Shown here in pieces: positions 1 through 19,022 of a stretch of DNA of 52,086 nucleotides. The notes below the pieces were generated by a model that was not told the DNA's origin, did no database searches, and saw only the letters and a program-made list of their open reading frames with translations. The stretch lies in IMG/VR virus record IMGVR_UViG_2698536618_000020, one strand, 5' to 3'. The position numbers and the translations under genes were made by a program. The stretch is from a virus (Duplodnaviria; Heunggongvirae; Uroviricota; Caudoviricetes). Every line of letters starts with the position of its first letter. The first letter of the stretch is position 1.

Positions 1-243
1 TTATCTTGAAGGGTTAGTTGATGCGCCATTAACCTGAGCATTATTTCTTTCCCACTCCAGAATATCAGAAAGCCACCAACGATTGGGGTTTCCCTTTATT
101 GTTGGTTTAGGAAATGGTTTGCTGAGGGACTTTGGCTTTCTGTCTGGAGTACTCCAGAAATACAGAGTGCTTCGTGAAATTTTATATCGTTCCAGAATAT
201 CTTTGGTTAACAAGATTTCATTTGTTTTTGTAATGTCGTTCAT
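1..243 (-). CDS. xis: AlpA/Xis-family excisionase-like DNA-binding protein
   Basis: 80-aa ORF with stop at window edge; motif 'ISRSTLYFW...NRWWLSDILEW' typical of AlpA/excisionase HTH family; located at distal end of leftward early operon next to recombination genes. Confidence 0.6.
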   Translation of the reverse strand: MNDITKTNEILLTKDILERYKISRSTLYFWSTPDRKPKSLSKPFPKPTIKGNPNRWWLSDILEWERNNAQVNGASTNPSR

Positions 244-296
244 TTTATTCTCCAGTTGAATTGTTTAATCATCGAAAAACCGCCCGAAGGCGGTTG

Positions 297-548
297 TCAG
301 TTGATTGATGTGCGGCGCATTTTGCGAAGGCTGGCAATATGCTTTTCCTTCTCAATTTCTGCTTTAATCATGTGTAGTTCGTTGTGATCGATTCGCTCAA
401 ATTCTGCATTAAATGCGCTAATTGAAGCGGCTCTGGTTCTCCCATCCAGCCTTCGGAAGATTACCTGCGTCAGAGTGATTTTGCAGACTTCAACCGGATA
501 GTTGTTGGCATCGACGAAAGACTGCCCGCGCTGGATTAGAACGAACAC
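297..548 (-). CDS. hypothetical early protein
   Basis: 83-aa ORF (GTG start) with AAGGAA Shine-Dalgarno 9 nt upstream; between xis and exo; no recognisable motif. Confidence 0.4.
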   Translation of the reverse strand: MFVLIQRGQSFVDANNYPVEVCKITLTQVIFRRLDGRTRAASISAFNAEFERIDHNELHMIKAEIEKEKHIASLRKMRRTSIN

Positions 549-596
549 CGGTAGTATTCCTTAATTGTCATATCATTTGCACCTCGTTGCTACTGG

Positions 597-1277
597 CTAT
601 CGCCATTGCTCCCCAAATACAAAACCAATTTCAGCCAGTGCCTCGTCCATTTTTTCGATGAACTCCGGTACCATTTCGTCAAAAACCTCCATGTATTTTT
701 CATCCCGTTCGACCACGACATAATGCAGGCCTTCACGCTTCATACGCGGGTCATAGTTGGCAAAGTACCAGGCATCTTTTCGCGTCACCCACATGCTGTA
801 CTGCACCTGGGCCATGTAAGCCGACTTTATGGCCTCGAAACCACCGAGCCGGAATTTCATGAAATCCCGGGAGGTAAACGGGCATTTCAGTTCAAGGCCG
901 TTGCCGTCACTGCATAAACCATCGGGAGAGCAGGCGGTGCGCATACTTTCGTCGCGATAGATGATCGGGGATTCAGTAACATTCACGCCGGAAGTGAACT
1001 CAAAGAGGGCTCTGGCGTCGTTCTCGTACTGTTTTCCCCAGGCCAGCGCTTTAGCGTTAACTTCCGGAGCCACACCGGTGCAAACCTCAGCCAGCAGGGT
1101 GTGGAAGTAGGACATTTTCATGTCAGGCCATTTCTTTCCTGAGCGGGGTTTTGCTATCACGTTGTGAACTTCTGAAGCGGTGATGACGCCGAGCCGTAAT
1201 TTGTGCCACGCATCATCCCCCTGTTCGACAGCTCTCACGTCGATCCCTGTACGTTGCAGGATAATGTCCGGTGTCAT
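597..1277 (-). CDS. exo: lambda-type exonuclease (Red-alpha)
   Basis: 226-aa protein, nearly identical over full length to lambda Exo as I recall it ([36 protein letters not shown]...); stop overlaps bet. Confidence 0.95.
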
Positions 1278-2059
1278 GCTGCTACCTTCTGCTCTGTGAC
1301 TTTCTGTTTCAGGAATCCAAGAACCTTCACAGCTTCAGCCTGTGTTAGTTCTGAAGATGTGTAAATGTTGCGGCGAAAAATCTGGGAACAGAGCGGCAAC
1401 AGGTCGTCATCCCACGTTTTTTCTATGGAAGTAAGAAGGGCGTTAATTTCCGACATGGTTTCTTCGTTAACCGGGGTGATGTCGCGTTCCGGCTGACGTT
1501 CTGTAGTATATGCAGTATTTTCGACAATACGCTCGGCTTCATCCTTGTCATAGATGCCAGCAAATCCGAAGGCCAGGCGAGCACACTGAATCATGGCTTT
1601 GTGCCGTAACATCCGTTTGGGATGCGACTGCCACGGTCCGGTGATTTCTCTGCCTTCGCGGGTTTTGAATGGTGCGCGGCGACATTCATCCATCCACTCG
1701 GTAACGCAGATCGGGTGATTGCGATCTTTGCGGTAAATCCGGCATGTACAGGACTCATTGTCCTGCTCAAAGTCCATGCCATCAAACTGCTGGTTTTCAT
1801 TGATAATGCGGGACCAGCCATCAACGCCAACCACCGGAACGATGCCGTTCTGCTTGTCAGGGAAGGCGTAAATTTCTTTCGTCCAGGGATTAAGGCCGTA
1901 CTGGTTGGCGACGATCAACAATGCGATAAATTGCGCATCGCTGGCATCACCTTTAAATGCCGTCTGGCGAAGAGTGGTGATTAGTTCCTGTGGGTCGACA
2001 GAATCCATGCCGACACGTTCAGCCAGCTTCCCTGCCAGCGTTGCGAGTGCTGTACTCAT
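1274..2059 (-). CDS. bet: Red-beta single-strand annealing protein
   Basis: 261 aa, matches lambda Beta along whole length ([48 protein letters not shown]...); 4-bp overlap with exo start. Confidence 0.95.
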
Positions 2060-2064
2060 CCGTT

Positions 2065-2361
2065 TTATACCTCTGAATCAATATTAATTTGGTGACGGGC
2101 GATGGTTTCAGCCATGTAGCGGATGTGTTCTGCCATGCGTTCCTGAAAATCGACATCGTCATCAAATGCACGGGAAATAGCTTTTTTGCTGGCCCCGTGA
2201 CGTTGCAGATTATCGATGCATAGCGATTCAAACAGGTGTTGGGGCAGACCTTTTTCCAGGTCGTCTGCCAGCTCAGCTTCAGTTTCTTCACGGGCAATTT
2301 GCTGGTAGTGTCGTGCCCATGACTGCTCTTCAATGCGATCGGGGATAAGCCAGGCATTCAT
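2065..2361 (-). CDS. gam: Gam host-nuclease (RecBCD) inhibitor, short GamS-like form
   Basis: 98 aa; '...[14 protein letters not shown]...[12 protein letters not shown]...RHGASKK...[12 protein letters not shown]...IDSEV' matches lambda GamS. Confidence 0.9.
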
Positions 2362-4430
2362 GATTTATCACCTTCGAAATTTTCAAGCCTGTTGGCAATC
2401 ATGATGGCGATATCAGGGATTGCTGGCGCTGTGGCTATACATGCGGGGTTGGCGCACAAACCATAGACGGCGGCAATCACGAGCTGTCTTTTCCAGTCGA
2501 GAGTTACTGGCTCAGAATTGGCGTCATCGCCGGACGTATCACTGCCTGGCTCGTTCTGAACAACGGTTTCGCCCTCCTGAGCGGCATCAACAGAGTTTTC
2601 CTGAATGATCTTCTCCTCAGTTTGTGCTGAGTCTTCTCCATCAGCGGCGTCATTTTCTCCAAAAGTTTCAGCGTAAGTTTCATCTCCCATTACTGGACCA
2701 CAGTCAGGGCAATGGCCGCCACCGTTCTGACTGCATGTGGTGCTAACCTTTTCCACTTCCTGTTGCATTACTGGCCCTGGCTGTTGCTCTTCTGGCCCGT
2801 TTTGTTGCGTATCCGGGCTGTTTTGTCCCGCTTCTGGGGCAATTTGTTCCACTTTGGGCTGATTCTGGTCCTCAGTGTCGCGAGTCTGGATCCCCTTCAC
2901 CCACTTCGGATCAGCAGGGTTACTGATGCCTTCAACGAATTCTCCACGCGAGGCAGCCAGTAATTTGTCGGCATCGACTGGATTTTTTGGGGGGATGTTT
3001 TCCCTGGCTTTATTGAGTTCCTCCCTCAGTTCCTGGTATTTCGTTTCTACAGATGAGACATTTTCCAGTGATTGCGTGTCCTCATTATGTTTAACTGGAA
3101 TTTCTTCCACTGATTCAGGCGCTGCCTGTTCATTAGCCATTGTGTCCGATGCTTGTTGCTTTTCTTCATCGCCATGTTTTCCTTCTGCTGTTCCGCGCTG
3201 CGGCATCGGTGCTGATGAGCGACCGCAGGCAATTTCCACGATTTCCGGATCCGGGTTAGCGTGATCGGTTTCGGTCAACACTTTGTTGAGATATTCAGTC
3301 ACGCGTGCCGGGATGGCCTCAATGCCGATTGGTGCTTCTTTCACGGAAGCCACCACAATGGCGCGGGAATAATCCAGCCCACCGGGCATGGCGATAAATT
3401 TGTCGCGAAAAACAGAAAAGGGCGGCTTATTCTCTGACACGATTTCTTCAACGCGTTTTGCGTGTGCTGGGTGCAGGTTATAAATATCCACATCCATTGA
3501 ACGGGCCAGAACGCCGGTGGCTACATCTCGTGCGAGTGATGTCTTATCATGTTTGAATCCTTCACCACGATCGGTAATATTTCCGCCGCCAGCGTTAGCA
3601 CCGGAAGGCGTACGGGTAATGCCTGAAACATAATTTCCGTTCTGCCATTCTTTTGTCAGCAGGCCCTGATCAAGGTAGTCAGTTTTCATCCAGGTGGAAA
3701 TGAACTTGTCGAATTCAGCCGGGCTGATGCGATGATTTGCAGAGTGGGGGAATGCTTTCCCTACAGATTCAGCCAGGCGACTAAGGTGATAGTTCGTCAG
3801 TTTATCCAGTTCATGATGCGCGGCGCGCACAGCAGTAAGCAGGCTCTGAAGGTAACTGTCCTCTGTGTCCATCTCCATACGGATCACGTTATTGCGTTGT
3901 TCTGGTGTGGCATGATGCCGGTATTTTCCATCTTCATCTTTGCTGAATAAGAAGAGGTGAAGGAAGCGATGAGTAAGGCTCAGAGTGGCGACGGGAATTT
4001 CACACTCAGAACAGTCATCGTCGCTGTCCGGGGATTCGCTTTTCTCCACATCATCCGGAATAGTTCCGTCCAGGTTATCGTTGTCATCGCCAGCAGTTGT
4101 GGCATCTTCACCGTTGATGTTGTCATCGAAGGGGATAGCCATCATGGTGATGCCATCGTTACCGCCTTTTTCATAGCGGTTGCAGAATTCAGTATCAAAC
4201 ACGCCTTCCGGTGGAAGGTCATTCACGACGGGGAAATTTACGCGAACGGGTTTTTTGAAATCATCCTCGTCGTAGCCTGCATCGTCCATGGCTGCAATGC
4301 AGCGGGAAACTGCGACAGAAAGTTTTCTGGCCTCGGTCCAGAAAAAACCGCCTTTGATGCCAAGGCGTTTTCTGACTTTATCGTTTTTTGCTTCGCAGTG
4401 TAGTGCAAAAGTCTGTTTATCAGCGCTCAT
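2358..4430 (-). CDS. large acidic hypothetical early protein (690 aa), function unknown
   Basis: 2073-nt uninterrupted ORF, ATGA-coupled to gam; long D/E/Q-rich low-complexity segments, two CxxC pairs ([16 protein letters not shown]), hydrophobic C-terminal segment; occupies the kil/cIII/ea10 slot of lambda. Confidence 0.7.
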
Positions 4431-6440: not shown

Positions 6441-6645
6441 GAGATCCGGGTCTTGAACCTACACAAACTATATAGCTCTCTTCTTTCCTCGGAAGGCCAG
6501 GTGCATCTAGCAGACGGCCTAGTTCGAATTTTTTTACGTTGACACCAGGAGGAATCACCTCGACGATAAACCCGATTTTTACCTTCGTTACACCGTTTGA
6601 TGAGCTTGACCATTTAACTTCATCGTTCAATTTGAACTTCATCAT
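6361..6645 (-). CDS. hypothetical protein immediately downstream of N
   Basis: 94-aa ORF from Met (MMKFKLNDEVKW...) starting 5 nt after N stop; position of ral/sieB in lambda. Confidence 0.35.
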   Translation of the reverse strand: MMKFKLNDEVKWSSSSNGVTKVKIGFIVEVIPPGVNVKKFELGRLLDAPGLPRKEESYIVCVGSRPGSRAKPKYYWPRVNNLRRLQQKTCALKT

Positions 6646-6650
6646 TAACC

Positions 6651-6956
6651 TCAATCGTAATAAGCCGGAATTGATTTTCCGCGTTGTTTCTGGCGGCCTG
6701 AGCAAGTCACACCCATTTCACTGCGTGGTTTGCGGTAGTAAATACGGTTCTGTTTACTCTCGACTTCTTCTGCCTTCTTGCAGCGAAGGCTTCCGAGTGA
6801 TACTGCTTTGTCTGCTCCGACGCAACCAGAGATCTTTAGCGCAATCTTCCGTGTCAGTCTTTCACTACTGCGCCGCTCTGCAATAAGTTCTTCCCTGCGA
6901 GCTTTATAGCGGCTTTTTGCCGTACCTTTGGATTCTTTCCAGATTATGGTTACCAT
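6651..6956 (-). CDS. N: N-like transcription antitermination protein
   Basis: 101 aa from ATG with AAGGAGA SD; N-terminal arginine-rich motif (GTAKSRYKARREELIAERR); C-terminus 'RIYYRKPRSEMGVTCSGRQKQRGKSIP' matches lambda N 'RTWYSKPGERGITCSGRQKIKGKSIP'. Confidence 0.85.
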   Translation of the reverse strand: MVTIIWKESKGTAKSRYKARREELIAERRSSERLTRKIALKISGCVGADKAVSLGSLRCKKAEEVESKQNRIYYRKPRSEMGVTCSGRQKQRGKSIPAYYD

Positions 6957-7066
6957 GATGGTCTCCTTTAAGTGGCTTTGGTGTATGACGCGTCGAGGTG
7001 TTTTTCTTCTCGATCGCGGCCTTGCAACTGAAATTCGCGTCATCCCCAAAACCACTTAGATTTTGG

Positions 7067-7108
7067 TCTCAACGGTTAGGTTGAGAGTCCATCAATGTTA
7101 AAGAGCCG
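7067..7108 (-). promoter_or_regulatory. nutL candidate (boxA + boxB hairpin)
   Basis: minus-strand boxA-like GGCTCTTTAAC (7098-7108) then boxB hairpin TCTCAACCTAACCGTTGAGA (7067-7086) in the N leader. Confidence 0.6.
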
Positions 7109-7154
7109 GCCAATCTGTTCCGTTTGGCTTCCAGCGTCCTGCTGTTGAATTGAA

Positions 7155-7229
7155 GATAACCTAAGTTATCTGGTTGCGCAATAACTATATTTATCATTTT
7201 ATGAAAAACGTTATAAATGACTGATAACA
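7155..7229. promoter_or_regulatory. OL operator cluster / PL promoter region
   Basis: GATAAC-CTAA-GTTATC (7155-7170), ATAACTATATTTATCA (7181-7196), GTTATAAATGACTGATAAC (7211-7229); same half-sites as between cI and cro; about 200 bp upstream of N. Confidence 0.55.
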
Positions 7230-7289
7230 AAAATATTTTATTTTTTGTGGTATCCGCGTGATATTTTCAAGGGGGAAAGGCTGATTGTT

Positions 7290-7511
7290 ATGGGTGATTG
7301 CATGTTAATCGAAGGGGAATTTGGTGTGTTGCACCAGCGGGTAGTCGAAATTCTAGGGGTGTCGTTGCTTGAGGTTATTGCTACTGGGGAAGCTATTTCA
7401 GCAGATGCTATTGCGGGAATGATCCGAGTGCTTCACCATGATGAATTGGATGATCTCGCTGTGAAGTTAGCTATAGATGTGTTACTTCAGGATATGCGAC
7501 TGTGTAATTAA
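7290..7511 (+). CDS. hypothetical acidic 73-aa protein between OL and cI (rexAB-equivalent position)
   Basis: ATG at 7290 with GGGGGAAAGG 9 nt upstream; longer frame from 7245; no motif recognised. Confidence 0.35.
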   Translation: MGDCMLIEGEFGVLHQRVVEILGVSLLEVIATGEAISADAIAGMIRVLHHDELDDLAVKLAIDVLLQDMRLCN

Positions 7512-7512
7512 G

Positions 7513-7540
7513 TAAATAAAACCCGGCACTGGAGCCGGGG
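7513..7540 (-). terminator. intrinsic terminator downstream of cI (minus strand)
   Basis: hairpin CCCGGC-actgga-GCCGGG (7522-7539) followed on minus strand by TTTTATTTACTT. Confidence 0.5.
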
Positions 7541-7663
7541 GATTTAGAAATGGCATTTTATGAATTGGCTACTTGGCGAATGGTTTACCATCGGTGGTAT
7601 TGAGCACAATAAAAGGCCGTTCTTCGTGAGTGTTCTTATAGCAAAAGTTCAGTTGGAGTCTGA

Positions 7664-8371
7664 TTACCAGCTATGTGATGACCAGAACACTCGCCCTATG
7701 ATTCTTACGTTTTTGTAGAATTCTTCTCTGTTCATTACTTCATCAGGATACTCTTCGCGGTTTATCGATCTGATAATTACCGATGTTGGCGTGGCTATGA
7801 GCGTTTTTACCCTTAACAAATCAGCTTGGCAAATTGCATATGTTTTACCATCCCTGATGCTCGTATCTTGCGTGTTTACCCCCACCACATCACCATCATG
7901 GAGTGTTGGCTCCATGCTTTGCCCAACAACCCTGACCAACTTTGCCGCTTTTTCTGGAACTCCCATTTTTTTCAGGTAATAGCGCCTAAAAACTAGAGAG
8001 AATTCTGCGGACTCCTCCAATGCACAACTTCCTCCGCCAGCTGAAAGTGAAATATTTAGAAGGGGGAGCGCAACAAATTCGTCATTATCATTTTGATGAT
8101 CATCCCAGGCGATAGCTTTTAAAGATGATTCCCGAGCATTAGATGGCTCTTCTGCGCTCTGTGGTCTCATTGACCCTATACCAGAGCTTAGCCATTCAGG
8201 GCGAACTCTTAACGCGTTGGCTAATTCGACCATTTTACGTGATCCGGTTGTTTTACCAGATGACATCTTTTGTATGGCTGGTTGTGATACCCCCACCATG
8301 TCTGCAAGTTGTGCTTGTGACAACCCGGCTGAACTCATGGCGGCATTTAGTCTTTCTGCGAATGTTTTCAT
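7664..8371 (-). CDS. cI: CI-type prophage repressor (HTH_XRE N-domain + LexA/S24 peptidase C-domain)
   Basis: 235 aa; N-terminal HTH (LSQAQLADMVGVSQPAIQKM), Ala-Gly cleavage region (LSAGGG), S24 motifs GQSMEPTL and K in '...LLRVKTLI...'; divergent from cro. Confidence 0.92.
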   Translation of the reverse strand: MKTFAERLNAAMSSAGLSQAQLADMVGVSQPAIQKMSSGKTTGSRKMVELANALRVRPEWLSSGIGSMRPQSAEEPSNARESSLKAIAWDDHQNDNDEFVALPLLNISLSAGGGSCALEESAEFSLVFRRYYLKKMGVPEKAAKLVRVVGQSMEPTLHDGDVVGVNTQDTSIRDGKTYAICQADLLRVKTLIATPTSVIIRSINREEYPDEVMNREEFYKNVRIIGRVFWSSHSW

Positions 8372-8383
8372 ACCTGTAATCTA

Positions 8384-8445
8384 TAACCACGGTTATCAAA
8401 AGTAAAACAACAATTGTTATTGCTCTGGTGTATAACTCATGTTAT
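8384..8445. promoter_or_regulatory. OR operator cluster with PRM/PR
   Basis: ATAACCACGGTTAT (8384-8397), AACAATTGTT (8408-8417), ATAACTCATGTTAT (8432-8445) in the cI-cro intergenic region. Confidence 0.6.
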
Positions 8446-8481
8446 TTTTGGTTATGCTTTATTTGCTGTAGAGGTATGCTC

Positions 8482-8706
8482 ATGAATTTAGTGATTCAGC
8501 GAGCCTTGAATATTGTTGGCAGTCAAAAACGACTTGCAGCTGATTGCGGCGTATCACAGCCCGCTGTTCATAAATGGTTGCGAGGCGGAAAAGTTTCTCC
8601 TGAAAAAGTTTTCGCTATCGTTAATGCCACCAATGGTCAGGTTAAGGCTTACGAAATTCGCCCGGACTTACCGCACCTGTTTCCTCATCCGAACCAGGCT
8701 GAATAA
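8482..8706 (+). CDS. cro: Cro-like HTH regulator
   Basis: 74 aa from ATG 7 nt after GAGG; HTH 'RLAADCGVSQPAVHKWLRGGK'; divergent from cI (alternative start 8476). Confidence 0.8.
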   Translation: MNLVIQRALNIVGSQKRLAADCGVSQPAVHKWLRGGKVSPEKVFAIVNATNGQVKAYEIRPDLPHLFPHPNQAE

Positions 8707-8713
8707 GTAACAC

Positions 8714-8754
8714 CGCTCTTTAACATTGCTGGTCGTTCACCTCTAACAGGGTGA
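8714..8754 (+). promoter_or_regulatory. nutR candidate (boxA CGCTCTTTA + boxB hairpin)
   Basis: boxA-like CGCTCTTTA (8714-8722) followed by hairpin TCACC-tctaacag-GGTGA (8737-8754) between cro and cII. Confidence 0.55.
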
Positions 8755-8822
8755 GCAAACATCAGTGGCAAACCCATTGGGGATTGCCGCTTAACCCCAT
8801 ATCAATATAGGAAAATTAACAA

Positions 8823-9119
8823 ATGTCACAAACAAGTTACAGCAAACTGTCACAGCGCGATATCGATCGCGCTGAAACGGATTTACTTATCAACCTGTCA
8901 GCTCTGACGCAAAGGGGACTGGCGAAGATGATTGGCTGCCATGAATCGAAGGTCAGTCGTACCGACTGGCGATACATCGCGGCGATTTTATGCGCGTTCC
9001 AGATGGCATCTGATATCAGTCCGATCAGCCGGGCTTTCCAGCATGCCATTAACGTTCATGCAAATAAAAAACGTCCGGTTGGGGCCGGACGTTCTGAGCA
9101 AATCCTGATGAACATCTGA
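8823..9119 (+). CDS. cII: CII-like transcriptional activator
   Basis: 98 aa; C-terminus 'NKKRPVGAGRSEQILMNI' matches lambda CII 'NKKRPAATERSEQIQMEF'; AGGAAA SD. Confidence 0.85.
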   Translation: MSQTSYSKLSQRDIDRAETDLLINLSALTQRGLAKMIGCHESKVSRTDWRYIAAILCAFQMASDISPISRAFQHAINVHANKKRPVGAGRSEQILMNI

Positions 9120-9190
9120 TATTCAGGCAGGGCATGGAGCAATACACGGGAATAATTCTGCCACATCTGGAAGAATTTCGCCAGCAACAA

Positions 9191-9339
9191 CACCAACCGC
9201 AGCAGCCTGAAGCCGATTGGGTTAACCCGGAGATACCGGGACCGTCTGTGAAGATGTGCAGTCACACCAATGTGCAGTCACACCAACCGCAGCAGCCTGA
9301 AGCCGATTGGGTTAACCCGGGAGATACCGGGACCGTCTG
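9191..9339. repeat. two ~58-bp direct repeats (90-bp period) plus 16-bp tandem duplication; iteron-like
   Basis: CACCAACCGCAGCAGCCTGAAGCCGATTGGGTTAACCCGG(G)AGATACCGGGACCGTCTG at 9191-9248 and 9281-9339; TGTGCAGTCACACCAA x2 at 9255-9286; a third diverged copy lies inside the replication gene at 10031-10114. Confidence 0.8.
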
Positions 9340-9372
9340 CGGTATGGAGTAAATCTTGTATGCGAGGGGACT

Positions 9373-10455
9373 ATGCGTAATTACGCAACAATTTCACCTC
9401 AGTTCTGGTTAGGCGATACAGGGCGAAAACTCAGGAAGTCTGGTCCGGAATGTATGGTAGTGGCGTTGTATATGATGACCTCGCCTCATTCCAATATGCT
9501 GGGCCTTTATTACCTGCCTGTTTTGTACATTGCTCACGAAACCGGACTTGATCCTGAAGGGGCTTCTAAGGGGCTTCAAATGGCTTGCGAGGCTGGTTTT
9601 TGCAGCTATGACCATGATTCTGAGGTTGTATGGGTGCATGAAATGGCAGCATGGCAGGTTGGTGAAGCGCTGAAACCTGGCGATAACCGTTGTGCTGGGG
9701 TAAGAAATGAATATTCCGCGTTGCTGGAAAATCCTTTTTTATCATCCTTTTATGATAGATATAAGGATGATTTCCACCTGGATGTCAGACGTGAATCATG
9801 TCGGAAAATTGAAGCCCCTTCAGAGCCCCTTTCAAGCCAAGAACAGGAACAGGAACAAGAACAGGAAAGGGATAAAACCCTTTTGGTCCATGGCGAAAAA
9901 ATCGCCACGGACCCACAGGGGGATTTTTGTCCTGTTCTGACTGAACGTCCAGGACCAGCTGGCACGACACCGGAAGCAGATTCCGGGCGTTGTGTGCAGC
10001 AGGTGCTGATCGTCGAACCGGAGCAACAACGCCAACCGCAGCAGCCTGAAGCCGATTCCGCGATGAGCGGGAAGCCGATTGGGTTAACCCGGGCGATGCC
10101 GGGACCGTCTGCGGGACGAGTTGATTATCCTGACGTGTTCGAACGGGTCTGGCGTGAATATCCGCATCGGGCAGGGTCAAACCCGAAGAAATCCGCGTTC
10201 AATGCCTGGAGGGCCAGATTACGCGAAGGGGTGTCACCGGATGTCGTGCTGGATGGCGTGAGGCGTTACGCAAGATACCTGGAGGCTACCGGGAAAGCGG
10301 GAACTGAATTTGTTCAGCAGGCATCGACGTTTTTTGGCCCGAACAGGAATTTCGAAAATCCGTGGTCGCTGCCGAAGGCTGGCGCAGTCAGCCTGCGTTG
10401 CGTGAATCACATTTCTGAACCGGACACCGAAATTCCGCCGGGTTTCAGGGGGTAA
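9373..10455 (+). CDS. replication initiation / replisome organizer protein (YdaU/DUF1376-like)
   Basis: 360 aa; sits in lambda O position directly upstream of DnaC-like gene; N-terminal region resembles DUF1376 proteins as I recall them; contains (EQ)n linker and the third repeat copy. Confidence 0.7.
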   Translation: MRNYATISPQFWLGDTGRKLRKSGPECMVVALYMMTSPHSNMLGLYYLPVLYIAHETGLDPEGASKGLQMACEAGFCSYDHDSEVVWVHEMAAWQVGEALKPGDNRCAGVRNEYSALLENPFLSSFYDRYKDDFHLDVRRESCRKIEAPSEPLSSQEQEQEQEQERDKTLLVHGEKIATDPQGDFCPVLTERPGPAGTTPEADSGRCVQQVLIVEPEQQRQPQQPEADSAMSGKPIGLTRAMPGPSAGRVDYPDVFERVWREYPHRAGSNPKKSAFNAWRARLREGVSPDVVLDGVRRYARYLEATGKAGTEFVQQASTFFGPNRNFENPWSLPKAGAVSLRCVNHISEPDTEIPPGFRG

Positions 10456-13270: not shown

Positions 13271-13515
13271 ATTCATTACGATATGGGAATTCCCATATCG
13301 GGTAAAAACGGTTTGCGGTAAAGCGAGAGTTAAGTAGAATTGCTGCGGGTGCTTGAGGCTGTCTGCCTCGGGCATGCCACCGTAAGGCAGACAGAGAAAA
13401 GCCCCAGTTAACATTACGCGTCCTGCAAGACGCCTAACATTAATCTGAGGCCAATTTCATGCTAGACACATGTAGGTTAGCCTCTTACGCGCCGAAAGGC
13501 AAGGAGAAGCAGGCT

Positions 13516-13671
13516 ATGAAGCAGCAAAAGGCGATGTTAGTCGCCCTGATCGTCATCTGTATTACCGTCATTGTGACGGCACTGGTAACGAGGAAAGACC
13601 TCTGCGAGGTACGAATCCGAACCGGCCAGACGGAGGTCACTGTCTTCACAGCTTACGAACCTGAGGAGTAA
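13516..13671 (+). CDS. hok: Hok/Gef-family type I toxin
   Basis: 51 aa 'MKQQKAMLVALIVICITVIVTALVTRKDLCEVRIRTGQTEVTVFTAYEPEE', matches E. coli HokD/RelF as I recall it; AAGGAGAAG SD; longer in-frame upstream ORF (13459) is Mok-like. Confidence 0.85.
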   Translation: MKQQKAMLVALIVICITVIVTALVTRKDLCEVRIRTGQTEVTVFTAYEPEE

Positions 13672-15294: not shown

Positions 15295-15638
15295 TTTTTG
15301 TTCCGTTATTAATGTATAACACATAGTGTTACATTGCGTAGGGATCTGCAATGCCATCAGTTTGACAACGTCGCGTATCCGGGATTATATTCATCGCACG
15401 CCAGCAAAATCTGGCGTCGGGATTAGGAACCCCGGATAGAAACCGCGACAGAGACACGCCGCGAGCGTGTTTTTTATTGTCGTATGCACACGCACATCTG
15501 AATTATGGTGGGGCGTATAGGGGAGCTGAAAAGCTCGCCGGTTGGTTTCCCGGTAGTTCCTAACCCTGTACGTCTCGCCACCCGATGATTAGGAACCTGA
15601 CGGTGGTGATAGTTTAGAAACCACTCGAGGGCGTCATT

Positions 15639-18537: not shown

Positions 18538-19022
18538 GTATCCGTTCAACGGGAATGTTACATACCTCACAATTAAGTCAGTTGAATGTTGTCTGCCCGG
18601 ATGAGAATTTGTTAGAAAAAACTGCATGGTGAATCCCCCTGAGCGGAGGGGCGACTGGTGACGGTATAATCTCTGATTATCAAAACGAGAATGACGCGGG
18701 TTTAGTGGCACCGGGCTGAACTCACCGGGAGGCACCCGGCACCATGCAATGGCACATAGCGCCACTCTCCAGCCCCTCTCCGGAGGGGCTTTCTTATGGA
18801 CAAAAAAGCCCGCGCTGGGAGACGCGGGCGGCAAGGAATGAACAATGAAACGTGAAGTAATATTTCAGCTGGCGAATAATACCCCATAGTAATCACTCTG
18901 CGCAACTGCGCGACCTTTTTCGAATTGCGGGCTGTAGTCTCCCTTCTGCCATTGTCCTGTAACTTCCGGACTTCAGCCCGCTCCTTATTTTACTCACAAT
19001 ATTATCCCGGCCGGGAGGATTC

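Follow-up and report, generated by a model that had tools for sequence, protein, structure and literature searches.

A conserved small gene of undescribed function beside the OL operators of lambda- and P22-like Enterobacterales prophages

A short open reading frame runs on the plus strand between the OL operators and the cI repressor gene of a tailed-phage genome (IMG/VR record IMGVR_UViG_2698536618_000020; the whole stretch of 52,086 nucleotides is called the window here), raising the questions of whether it is a gene, whether it takes the part that rexA and rexB take in lambda and what its product might do. An earlier note, made from the sequence, had described it as a small acidic ORF of 73-88 amino acids with its own Shine-Dalgarno (SD) sequence that faces cI across a hairpin serving as the cI-side terminator, had placed it in the rexAB-equivalent position as a candidate lysogen-expressed gene, perhaps for exclusion, and had allowed that it could be spurious. 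Its strand, its place between OL and cI, its small size and its composition were confirmed from the ORF list and by counting residues (about 12 D/E versus 4 K/R, a strongly acidic protein).

The window carries a lambdoid immunity region that contains N, nutL, three OL operators, cI, cro and cII (Table 1), and the part from 7060 to 7663 is 99.3-99.5% identical to the Stx phages PA28 and 06-3462 and to a set of Stx1a-converting phages. The N gene, labelled 'antitermination protein N' in phage 06-3462, is the first gene of the leftward (PL) operon, and the stretch 7061-7144 shares 95% identity with the annotated nutL/boxA of phage 21, mEp235 and HK629. A pattern search for ATAAC-N4-GTTAT with no or one mismatch gave six copies in the 52-kb window, all six of them in OL or OR, and PL must fire leftward from OL at 7156-7214. 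Between the cI stop codon and the cI terminator there are about 125 nt (7540-7663) free of genes; a 52-aa plus-strand ORF (7560-7718) that overlaps cI looks spurious. In prophages with a 79%-identical cI (locus L094) this same slot is occupied by a 98-aa gene co-oriented with cI and the small plus-strand gene is absent, and thus the rex slot of the window phage is taken to be empty.

Table 1. Positions, in the window, of the small gene, its signals and the surrounding features
Feature	Positions	Strand	Remarks
Antiterminator N gene, phage-21 type	6651-6956	-	ORF list; weak Pfam N_peptide match, E 8e-4
nutL	7067-7107	-	boxB hairpin ~7067-7086, boxA ~7096-7107; boxes read from sequence
OL operators, ATAAC-N4-GTTAT	7156-7169, 7181-7194, 7201-7214		0, 1 and 2 mismatches, the third tentative; pattern search
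A/T-rich tract ATATTTTATTTTTT	7233-7246	+	left edge of conserved module; -35/UP position of the small gene's promoter
Extended -10 element TGaTATTTT	7259-7267	+	read from sequence; predicted transcription start ~7273-7275
Alternative purine-rich SD	7271-7280	+	would serve ATG 7290; read from sequence
SD GGTGA for ATG 7302	7293-7297	+	read from sequence
CDS of PHROG 3946, small acidic protein, predicted helical	7302-7511	+	69 aa; alternative start 7290 gives 73 aa
G+C hairpin, 6-bp stem, common to the convergent transcripts	7522-7539		intrinsic terminator of the cI transcript
cI-type repressor, HTH_3 + Peptidase_S24	7664-8371	-	convergent with the small gene
OR operators	8383-8396, 8407-8420, 8432-8445		pattern search
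cro	8482-8706		rightward of cI
cII	8823-9119		rightward of cI
sok antitoxin RNA, isrK, C4 antisense RNA, STnc100	13347-13521, 15398-15475, 15501-15585, 18596-18801	+	Rfam matches above gathering score

No Rfam family scored above threshold in 6500-9200. Within that range, a sub-threshold resemblance to AgvB (20.5 bits, E 0.88) was found at 9066-9127 on the minus strand, antisense to the 3' end of cII; at its end is a G+C hairpin whose T-run is on this strand, and it is probably the OOP equivalent because it takes the position of lambda's OOP antisense RNA. Four plus-strand RNAs score above the Rfam gathering score further to the right (Table 1), with C4 directly after isrK. Two families of direct repeats, one of 36 nt and one of 49 nt, are interleaved at 9183-9342 and 10022-10114, just upstream of and inside a 360-aa gene (9373-10455) in the replication-gene position. 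Each has three copies, with identities of 63-97%, and a 72-aa ORF (9134-9352) is built from the first two repeat copies; the repeats may represent iterons of an origin or else a partly duplicated middle of the 360-aa gene.

By its sequence, the ORF is a protein-coding gene and not a chance frame, and it is a member of PHROG 3946, a phage family without described function. The profile match (E 3.2e-30) pairs residues 6-70 of the 73-aa form with positions 2-67 of 67, so that the profile is covered over its full length, and all members examined agree in length and in genomic slot. The branch found in E. coli and Stx phages is a divergent one, with about 30-45% identity to those of Salmonella and Klebsiella. 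When 1.84 billion representative proteins were searched exhaustively with the profile, only 26 clusters at 50% identity came up, all of about 65-70 aa, and the median pairwise dN/dS among homologues is 0.13 (551 pairs with 0.1 < pS < 0.6, drawn from 55 distinct coding sequences from related loci). The immunity region is present in 50 of 5,426 complete E. coli genomes, each of which has the ORF region, and a RefSeq 69-aa hypothetical protein starting at the ATG equivalent to 7302 is intact in 49 of them. Strain 2014C-3338 alone departs from this: its G-run (window positions 7356-7362) is longer by one G, which may be a frameshift that marks decay or a homopolymer sequencing error, and the remaining length variants among the 50 genomes are confined to the leader or the hairpin. 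An in-frame stop in place of a conserved Trp in the copy of phage g341c could also be decay or a sequencing error. A GVS/GGA difference, considered as a compensated frameshift, was resolved by alignment into two substitutions.

The idea of a chance frame in the spacer from OL to the cI terminator would be in keeping with the shortness of the ORF, with its lack of annotation in several phage records (PA28, Stx1a phages, epsilon34, ST104) and with the empty Pfam and NCBIfam searches, but it has to face the PHROG match, the low dN/dS, the RefSeq annotation in 49 of the 50 genomes and a length and position that are kept in homologues down to about 30% identity. It is hardly credible and is refuted by these conservation data, which also dispose of the corresponding reservation in the earlier note; loss or interruption of the frame in immunity regions that are otherwise identical was what that note had named as a refutation, and in such regions the frame is kept. 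The same note had called the ORF unassignable, which no longer holds as far as family membership is concerned and still holds for function: that of the family is undescribed, and a similarity to YmgB/AriR-YcgZ, discussed below, is suggestive and unproven. The ORF has no meaningful match in Pfam or NCBIfam, the PDB sequences reached by a profile search were those of unrelated proteins (best E 0.25), Foldseek against the BFVD viral structures reached at best E 1.2, and five family members run against the PADLOC defence models matched no family at E <= 1. RefSeq names PHROG 3946 members 'hypothetical protein' (for example, WP_024166114.1 and WP_024174011.1), as do other databases apart from the stray mislabels 'Fumarase D' and 'antitermination protein N'.

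The open frame can be read to the stop codon at 7509-7511 from TTG 7245 (88 aa), ATG 7290 (73 aa) or ATG 7302 (69 aa). The frames of 73-88 aa given in the earlier note do exist; however, the likely start codon is ATG 7302, which is common to the family and chosen by RefSeq, with which the initial Met of the complete members of the 26 clusters aligns, and which is preceded by the SD GGTGA, bearing out the claim that the gene has an SD of its own. ATG 7290 is possible as a start. The 88-aa form is unlikely because it would begin upstream of its own -10 element (TG at 7259-7260, TATTTT at 7262-7267), and it also extends outside the family alignment.

This -10 element was found to be a family trait. 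A TGN-NANNNT motif at -60 to -30 occurs in 49 of 63 distinct upstream regions, versus an average of 15, and never more than 28, in 200 composition-matched shuffles. Its copies lie at -36 to -47 relative to the start codon, with a cluster at -36 to -43; in the window, TGaTATTTT lies 43 nt before ATG 7302, a spacing in line with the family that supports this start. A generic promoter scan did not flag it, which is explained by the absence of a -35 match. The A/T-rich tract that takes the -35/UP position has a related counterpart, ATTTATTTTT, kept upstream of homologues that adjoin unrelated operator sets. In many family promoters (such as 'TGCCATACT' in locus L003 and 'TGCGATACT' in locus L005), positions -13 and -8 of the -10 element are both C, features that are often linked to RpoS-dependent promoters. 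At least 45 bp separate the gene's promoter from the last operator-like site, and the promoter does not overlap any operator. Activation of the PRM type by OL-bound repressor was considered and is disfavoured, both by the centres of the nearest operators, whose distances to the predicted start downstream are about 66 and 86 bp and not about 42, and by the promoter module being the same beside unrelated operators. A LexA box was searched for near the gene and was not found, so that an SOS-controlled antirepressor of the Gifsy type is unlikely.

On the other side of the gene, the terminator scan called the hairpin on the minus strand only (CCCGGCTCCAGTGCCGGG TTTTATTTAC), and since the T-run is on the cI strand alone, the hairpin is read as the terminator of the cI transcript, in agreement with the earlier note. 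The tail on the plus strand (GGAUUUAG) is weak, and judging by it the hairpin would be at best a weak terminator for the small gene, whose transcript, for want of a good U-tract, may run into the antisense of cI. The hairpin itself (AAAACCCGGC...GCCGGG) is kept downstream of most homologues.

The arrangement around the gene is the same in 88 of 88 loci (the window, five annotated phage loci, 80 IMG/VR loci and two genomes): leftward early-left genes, OL/PL, the rightward small gene, the hairpin, none to three leftward cargo genes, the leftward repressor gene and rightward cro. A one-genome-per-species scan gave only two loci, owing to its pattern method. The surroundings are highly mosaic: the repressors, some of them short HTH-only proteins, fall into at least four unrelated clusters, the early-left neighbours (N where recognisable) are of several types, and the cargo forms about 33 crude clusters, among them BstA and a ParA-like protein. 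The 307-aa cargo protein of MG40 and other Salmonella P22-like loci (cluster C10) was identified as the abortive-infection protein BstA (PADLOC E 1.7e-124), and some 30 other cargo clusters have no match to a defence model and could be mined for new systems. In locus L066 and similar Klebsiella-type loci, an inserted IS3-family element (orfA/orfB) follows directly after the hairpin of the small gene (about 280-1860 bp past its start codon), and the adjoining cargo gene, of 289 aa in intact relatives, is truncated there with the small gene untouched. Homologues are found in P22-like Salmonella phages (epsilon34, ST104, g341c, MG40, SPN9CC and others), in prophages of Klebsiella, Enterobacter, Citrobacter, Serratia, Yersinia and Trabulsiella and in phage-sized 'plasmid' records, and assemblies that carry the gene number in the thousands for Salmonella, Klebsiella and Shiga-toxin E. 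coli, with several exact sequences present on at least 1000 contigs each. On the other hand, many lambdoid phages lack it, including those with the 79%-identical cI. The conserved module extends from the A/T-rich tract, which abuts unrelated operators, to the hairpin, and on this sequence comparison the gene is a separate conserved unit that adjoins OL across lambda- and P22-like Enterobacterales prophages. Its constant place beside OL follows from geometry, since cargo that is co-transcribed with cI precedes the cI terminator and a gene on the opposite strand must lie beyond it.

The cI-N interval is known to be mosaic and a hotspot for accessory (moron) and defence genes of prophages (PMC8585504, PMC7067206), and in this respect the earlier note was right to see an accessory-gene slot here. 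rexAB of lambda and bstA of BTP1, which occupy the same genome interval as the small gene, are expressed from the prophage (PMC7067206, PMC8585504). Both have the orientation of cI and depend on the repressor promoter for their transcription, whereas the small gene is on the opposite strand to cI, beyond the cI terminator, and has its own promoter-like element. It is also conserved where such cargo is variable, coexists with cargo of this type in relatives and lacks similarity to any defence model. It is therefore not the rexAB equivalent that its position had suggested to the earlier note; a rex-like role falls to the variable cargo, which in relatives lies on the cI strand between the gene and the repressor.

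Stk of phage 933W is another cargo of the cI-N interval. Phage morons are independent units of promoter, gene and terminator, such as bor/lom of lambda and gp15 of HK97. The small gene resembles them in being a compact unit with a flanking hairpin and a promoter-like element of its own (the motif of 49 of 63 upstream regions, 15 being expected), in lying between essential regulatory blocks and in being dispensable in many relatives. It differs from typical morons, which are sporadic and variable in position, in being fixed at a single junction across mosaic backgrounds, and its terminator would really be that of the neighbour, with the T-run on the other strand.

The product is predicted to be an acidic, all-helical protein of three to four helices; the AlphaFold2 model (pLDDT 83) places helices at residues 4-32, 38-48 and 56-66 of the 73-aa form, and no DNA-binding or enzymatic signature was found. 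A lead to a function comes from YmgB/AriR, YcgZ and YmgA (PF10798; PDB 2OXL), small 'two-component-system connector' proteins of E. coli. When a comparison alignment of AriR, YcgZ and YmgA with their orthologues was set against the 51-sequence phage family with hhalign, a match over 41 columns was obtained (P 1.4e-4, probability 48-53%) that pairs the N-terminal F/Y-F, the invariant Gly (G-x-[AS]-[VL] versus G-[QE]-[AI]-V) and the S-R/K-x-x-L stretch. Its score of 26.5 compares with 12.9 for the reversed alignment, 9.0 +/- 1.7 for 149 column shuffles and 12.2 +/- 2.6 (maximum 20.1) for 150 shuffles in seven-column blocks. With a limit as lax as E <= 10, Pfam YmgB (PF10798) hits neither the window protein nor one of the 17 members scanned; AriR and YcgZ themselves score 90 and 25 bits, and tblastn of AriR and YcgZ against 50,697 phage records gave no match and no bona fide PF10798 member. 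The fold match to YmgB is model-dependent, since with a second AlphaFold model, made for a Klebsiella-type member (pLDDT 81, kinked first helix), YmgB was absent from the 60 best matches, which were generic helical-repeat proteins only, and caution is in order as small helical proteins match one another easily. The phage protein also lacks the N-terminal extension of about 20 residues of the YmgB family, and its gene is a single one in a prophage immunity region, whereas the YmgB genes lie in the BluR-controlled ycgZ-ymgABC operon. The relation to these connectors is thus given as a supported lead and not as membership; the phage family may be a distant relative. FumD/YdhZ (DUF2767, PF10965) was also considered: this enterobacterial protein is helical and 69 aa long, its 'EDE..EM..VVG..V....EP' pattern bears a superficial resemblance, and a Yersinia homologue of the small gene is labelled 'Fumarase D' in UniRef. 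Only one of 17 members (P0026) reached E 0.032 (14.7 bits, the cut-off being 20.7) and hhalign gave P 0.016 with a probability of 3%, which leaves that relation unsupported.

The connector family illustrates how helical proteins of 70-90 residues can act through a host protein. YmgB has two separate activities, binding to the TGS/helical domains of SpoT and an action on the Rcs system (PMC10704370; background also in PMC3509220), and YcgZ lowers ompF transcription and is a Lon substrate that is degraded by this protease (PMC5491885). The chromosomal ycgZ-ymgAB operon, for which a phage origin was suggested, adjoins the prophage e14, and the operon is absent from Salmonella, Yersinia and classical O157 (PMC3509220).

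Taken together, the A/T-rich tract, the extended -10 promoter, the short SD leader, the coding sequence and the hairpin shared with the convergent cI transcript would form one unit. As the promoter is set apart from the operators by at least 45 bp and remains the same from one immunity type to another, we infer that it would be free of repressor control and that the gene would be expressed in the lysogen, probably constitutively, which would make it an accessory gene of the moron type. Its product would bind and modulate another protein, most likely a conserved host regulator, as AriR/YmgB and YcgZ do. Binding to a host protein is the most economical proposal because the product lacks DNA-binding and catalytic features and coexists with unrelated phage regulators, and a phage-specific partner is argued against by the presence of the gene beside unrelated repressors (HTH-only ones included) and several types of early-left neighbour. 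This reading, of a lysogen-expressed moron-type gene whose product binds a host regulator, is preferred, although only tentatively and at somewhat less than an even chance; what the comparisons above show is a real gene with conserved synteny, a conserved promoter motif and an acidic helical product, and from there expression in the lysogen, the protein-binding action, the host target and the homology to YmgB are inferred.

An alternative reading of the fixed place beside OL/PL is that the gene serves the regulatory switch of the phage itself. Its product might modulate PL/N expression, the stability of the repressor or host proteases, for instance Lon or FtsH, by which N, cII or Xis are degraded, and the OL-side place divergent from PL would then reflect co-regulation with the early-left promoter. 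The adjacency to OL/PL is invariant in the 88 loci while the rest of the interval varies, the gene is divergent from PL and about 100 bp away from it, and its possible relative YcgZ is a Lon substrate (PMC5491885). However, geometry alone accounts for the position, the variety of repressor families (at least four, unrelated) and of early-left neighbours (several types) leaves no common phage partner, the promoter is kept independently of the operators and many lambdoid phages, even with a 79%-identical cI, do without the gene, so that a part in the switch is considered conceivable and rather unlikely. A function in defence or counter-defence, as an acidic DNA mimic or an inhibitor directed at a superinfecting phage or at a defence system of the host or of a prophage, is suggested by the location in a known prophage defence hotspot (PMC8585504, PMC7067206) and by the strong net negative charge. 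BstA is a neighbour in several loci, and the other residents of the interval, RexAB, BstA and Stk, act in phage conflict. Against this, neither the defence models nor the viral structures gave a usable match, and the gene is present with or without defence cargo, as in the empty slot of the window, and is hence not the partner of a specific system. Nothing points to the exclusion function that had been surmised for it, and a role in phage conflict is held to be improbable.

It could also be the act of transcription that matters, a constitutive rightward transcript dampening read-through of the cI operon or being antisense to the 3' end of cI or of the cargo. The convergent layout with one common hairpin, the U-tract that favours the cI strand only and the conserved promoter motif would fit, but the selection is on amino acids (dN/dS 0.13), the start codon and the SD are conserved and no Rfam family matches the region. 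With such strong purifying selection on the protein, a role at the RNA level would be only additional, and as the whole explanation it is very improbable.

The family is already known as such, catalogued in PHROG 3946 and in RefSeq as hypothetical proteins, and it is uncharacterised; a literature search found no paper that describes the ORF, and the genome paper of epsilon34 discusses the rex-like genes 44 and 45 and not the small gene. Three findings were not seen in the papers searched: the strict position at the edge of OL across mosaic backgrounds, the extended -10 promoter with its conservation and a possible relation to AriR/YcgZ. What is claimed is modest, a hypothetical prophage gene that is conserved and whose family link is plausible and unproven, in an interval that is among the best-studied phage DNA and home to lysogenic-conversion and defence genes, where it is left unannotated in epsilon34, ST104, PA28 and Stx1a phages. 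In a bolder version, to which we give a low but real chance, this fixed and overlooked gene would be an AriR/YcgZ-like connector, divergent from PL and independent of the repressor, that tunes Rcs, SpoT/ppGpp or porins or feeds the state of the host into the lysis-lysogeny decision, and would be the counterpart, perhaps even the source, of ycgZ-ymgAB. If the gene acted on the phage switch, it would be a new component in a textbook circuit. If it were a lysogen-expressed connector, it would offer a testable route by which prophages, including those of Stx phages, alter stress responses, biofilm and porin expression of the host, and it may supply the ycgZ-ymgAB function in hosts that lack this operon, such as Salmonella (PMC3509220).
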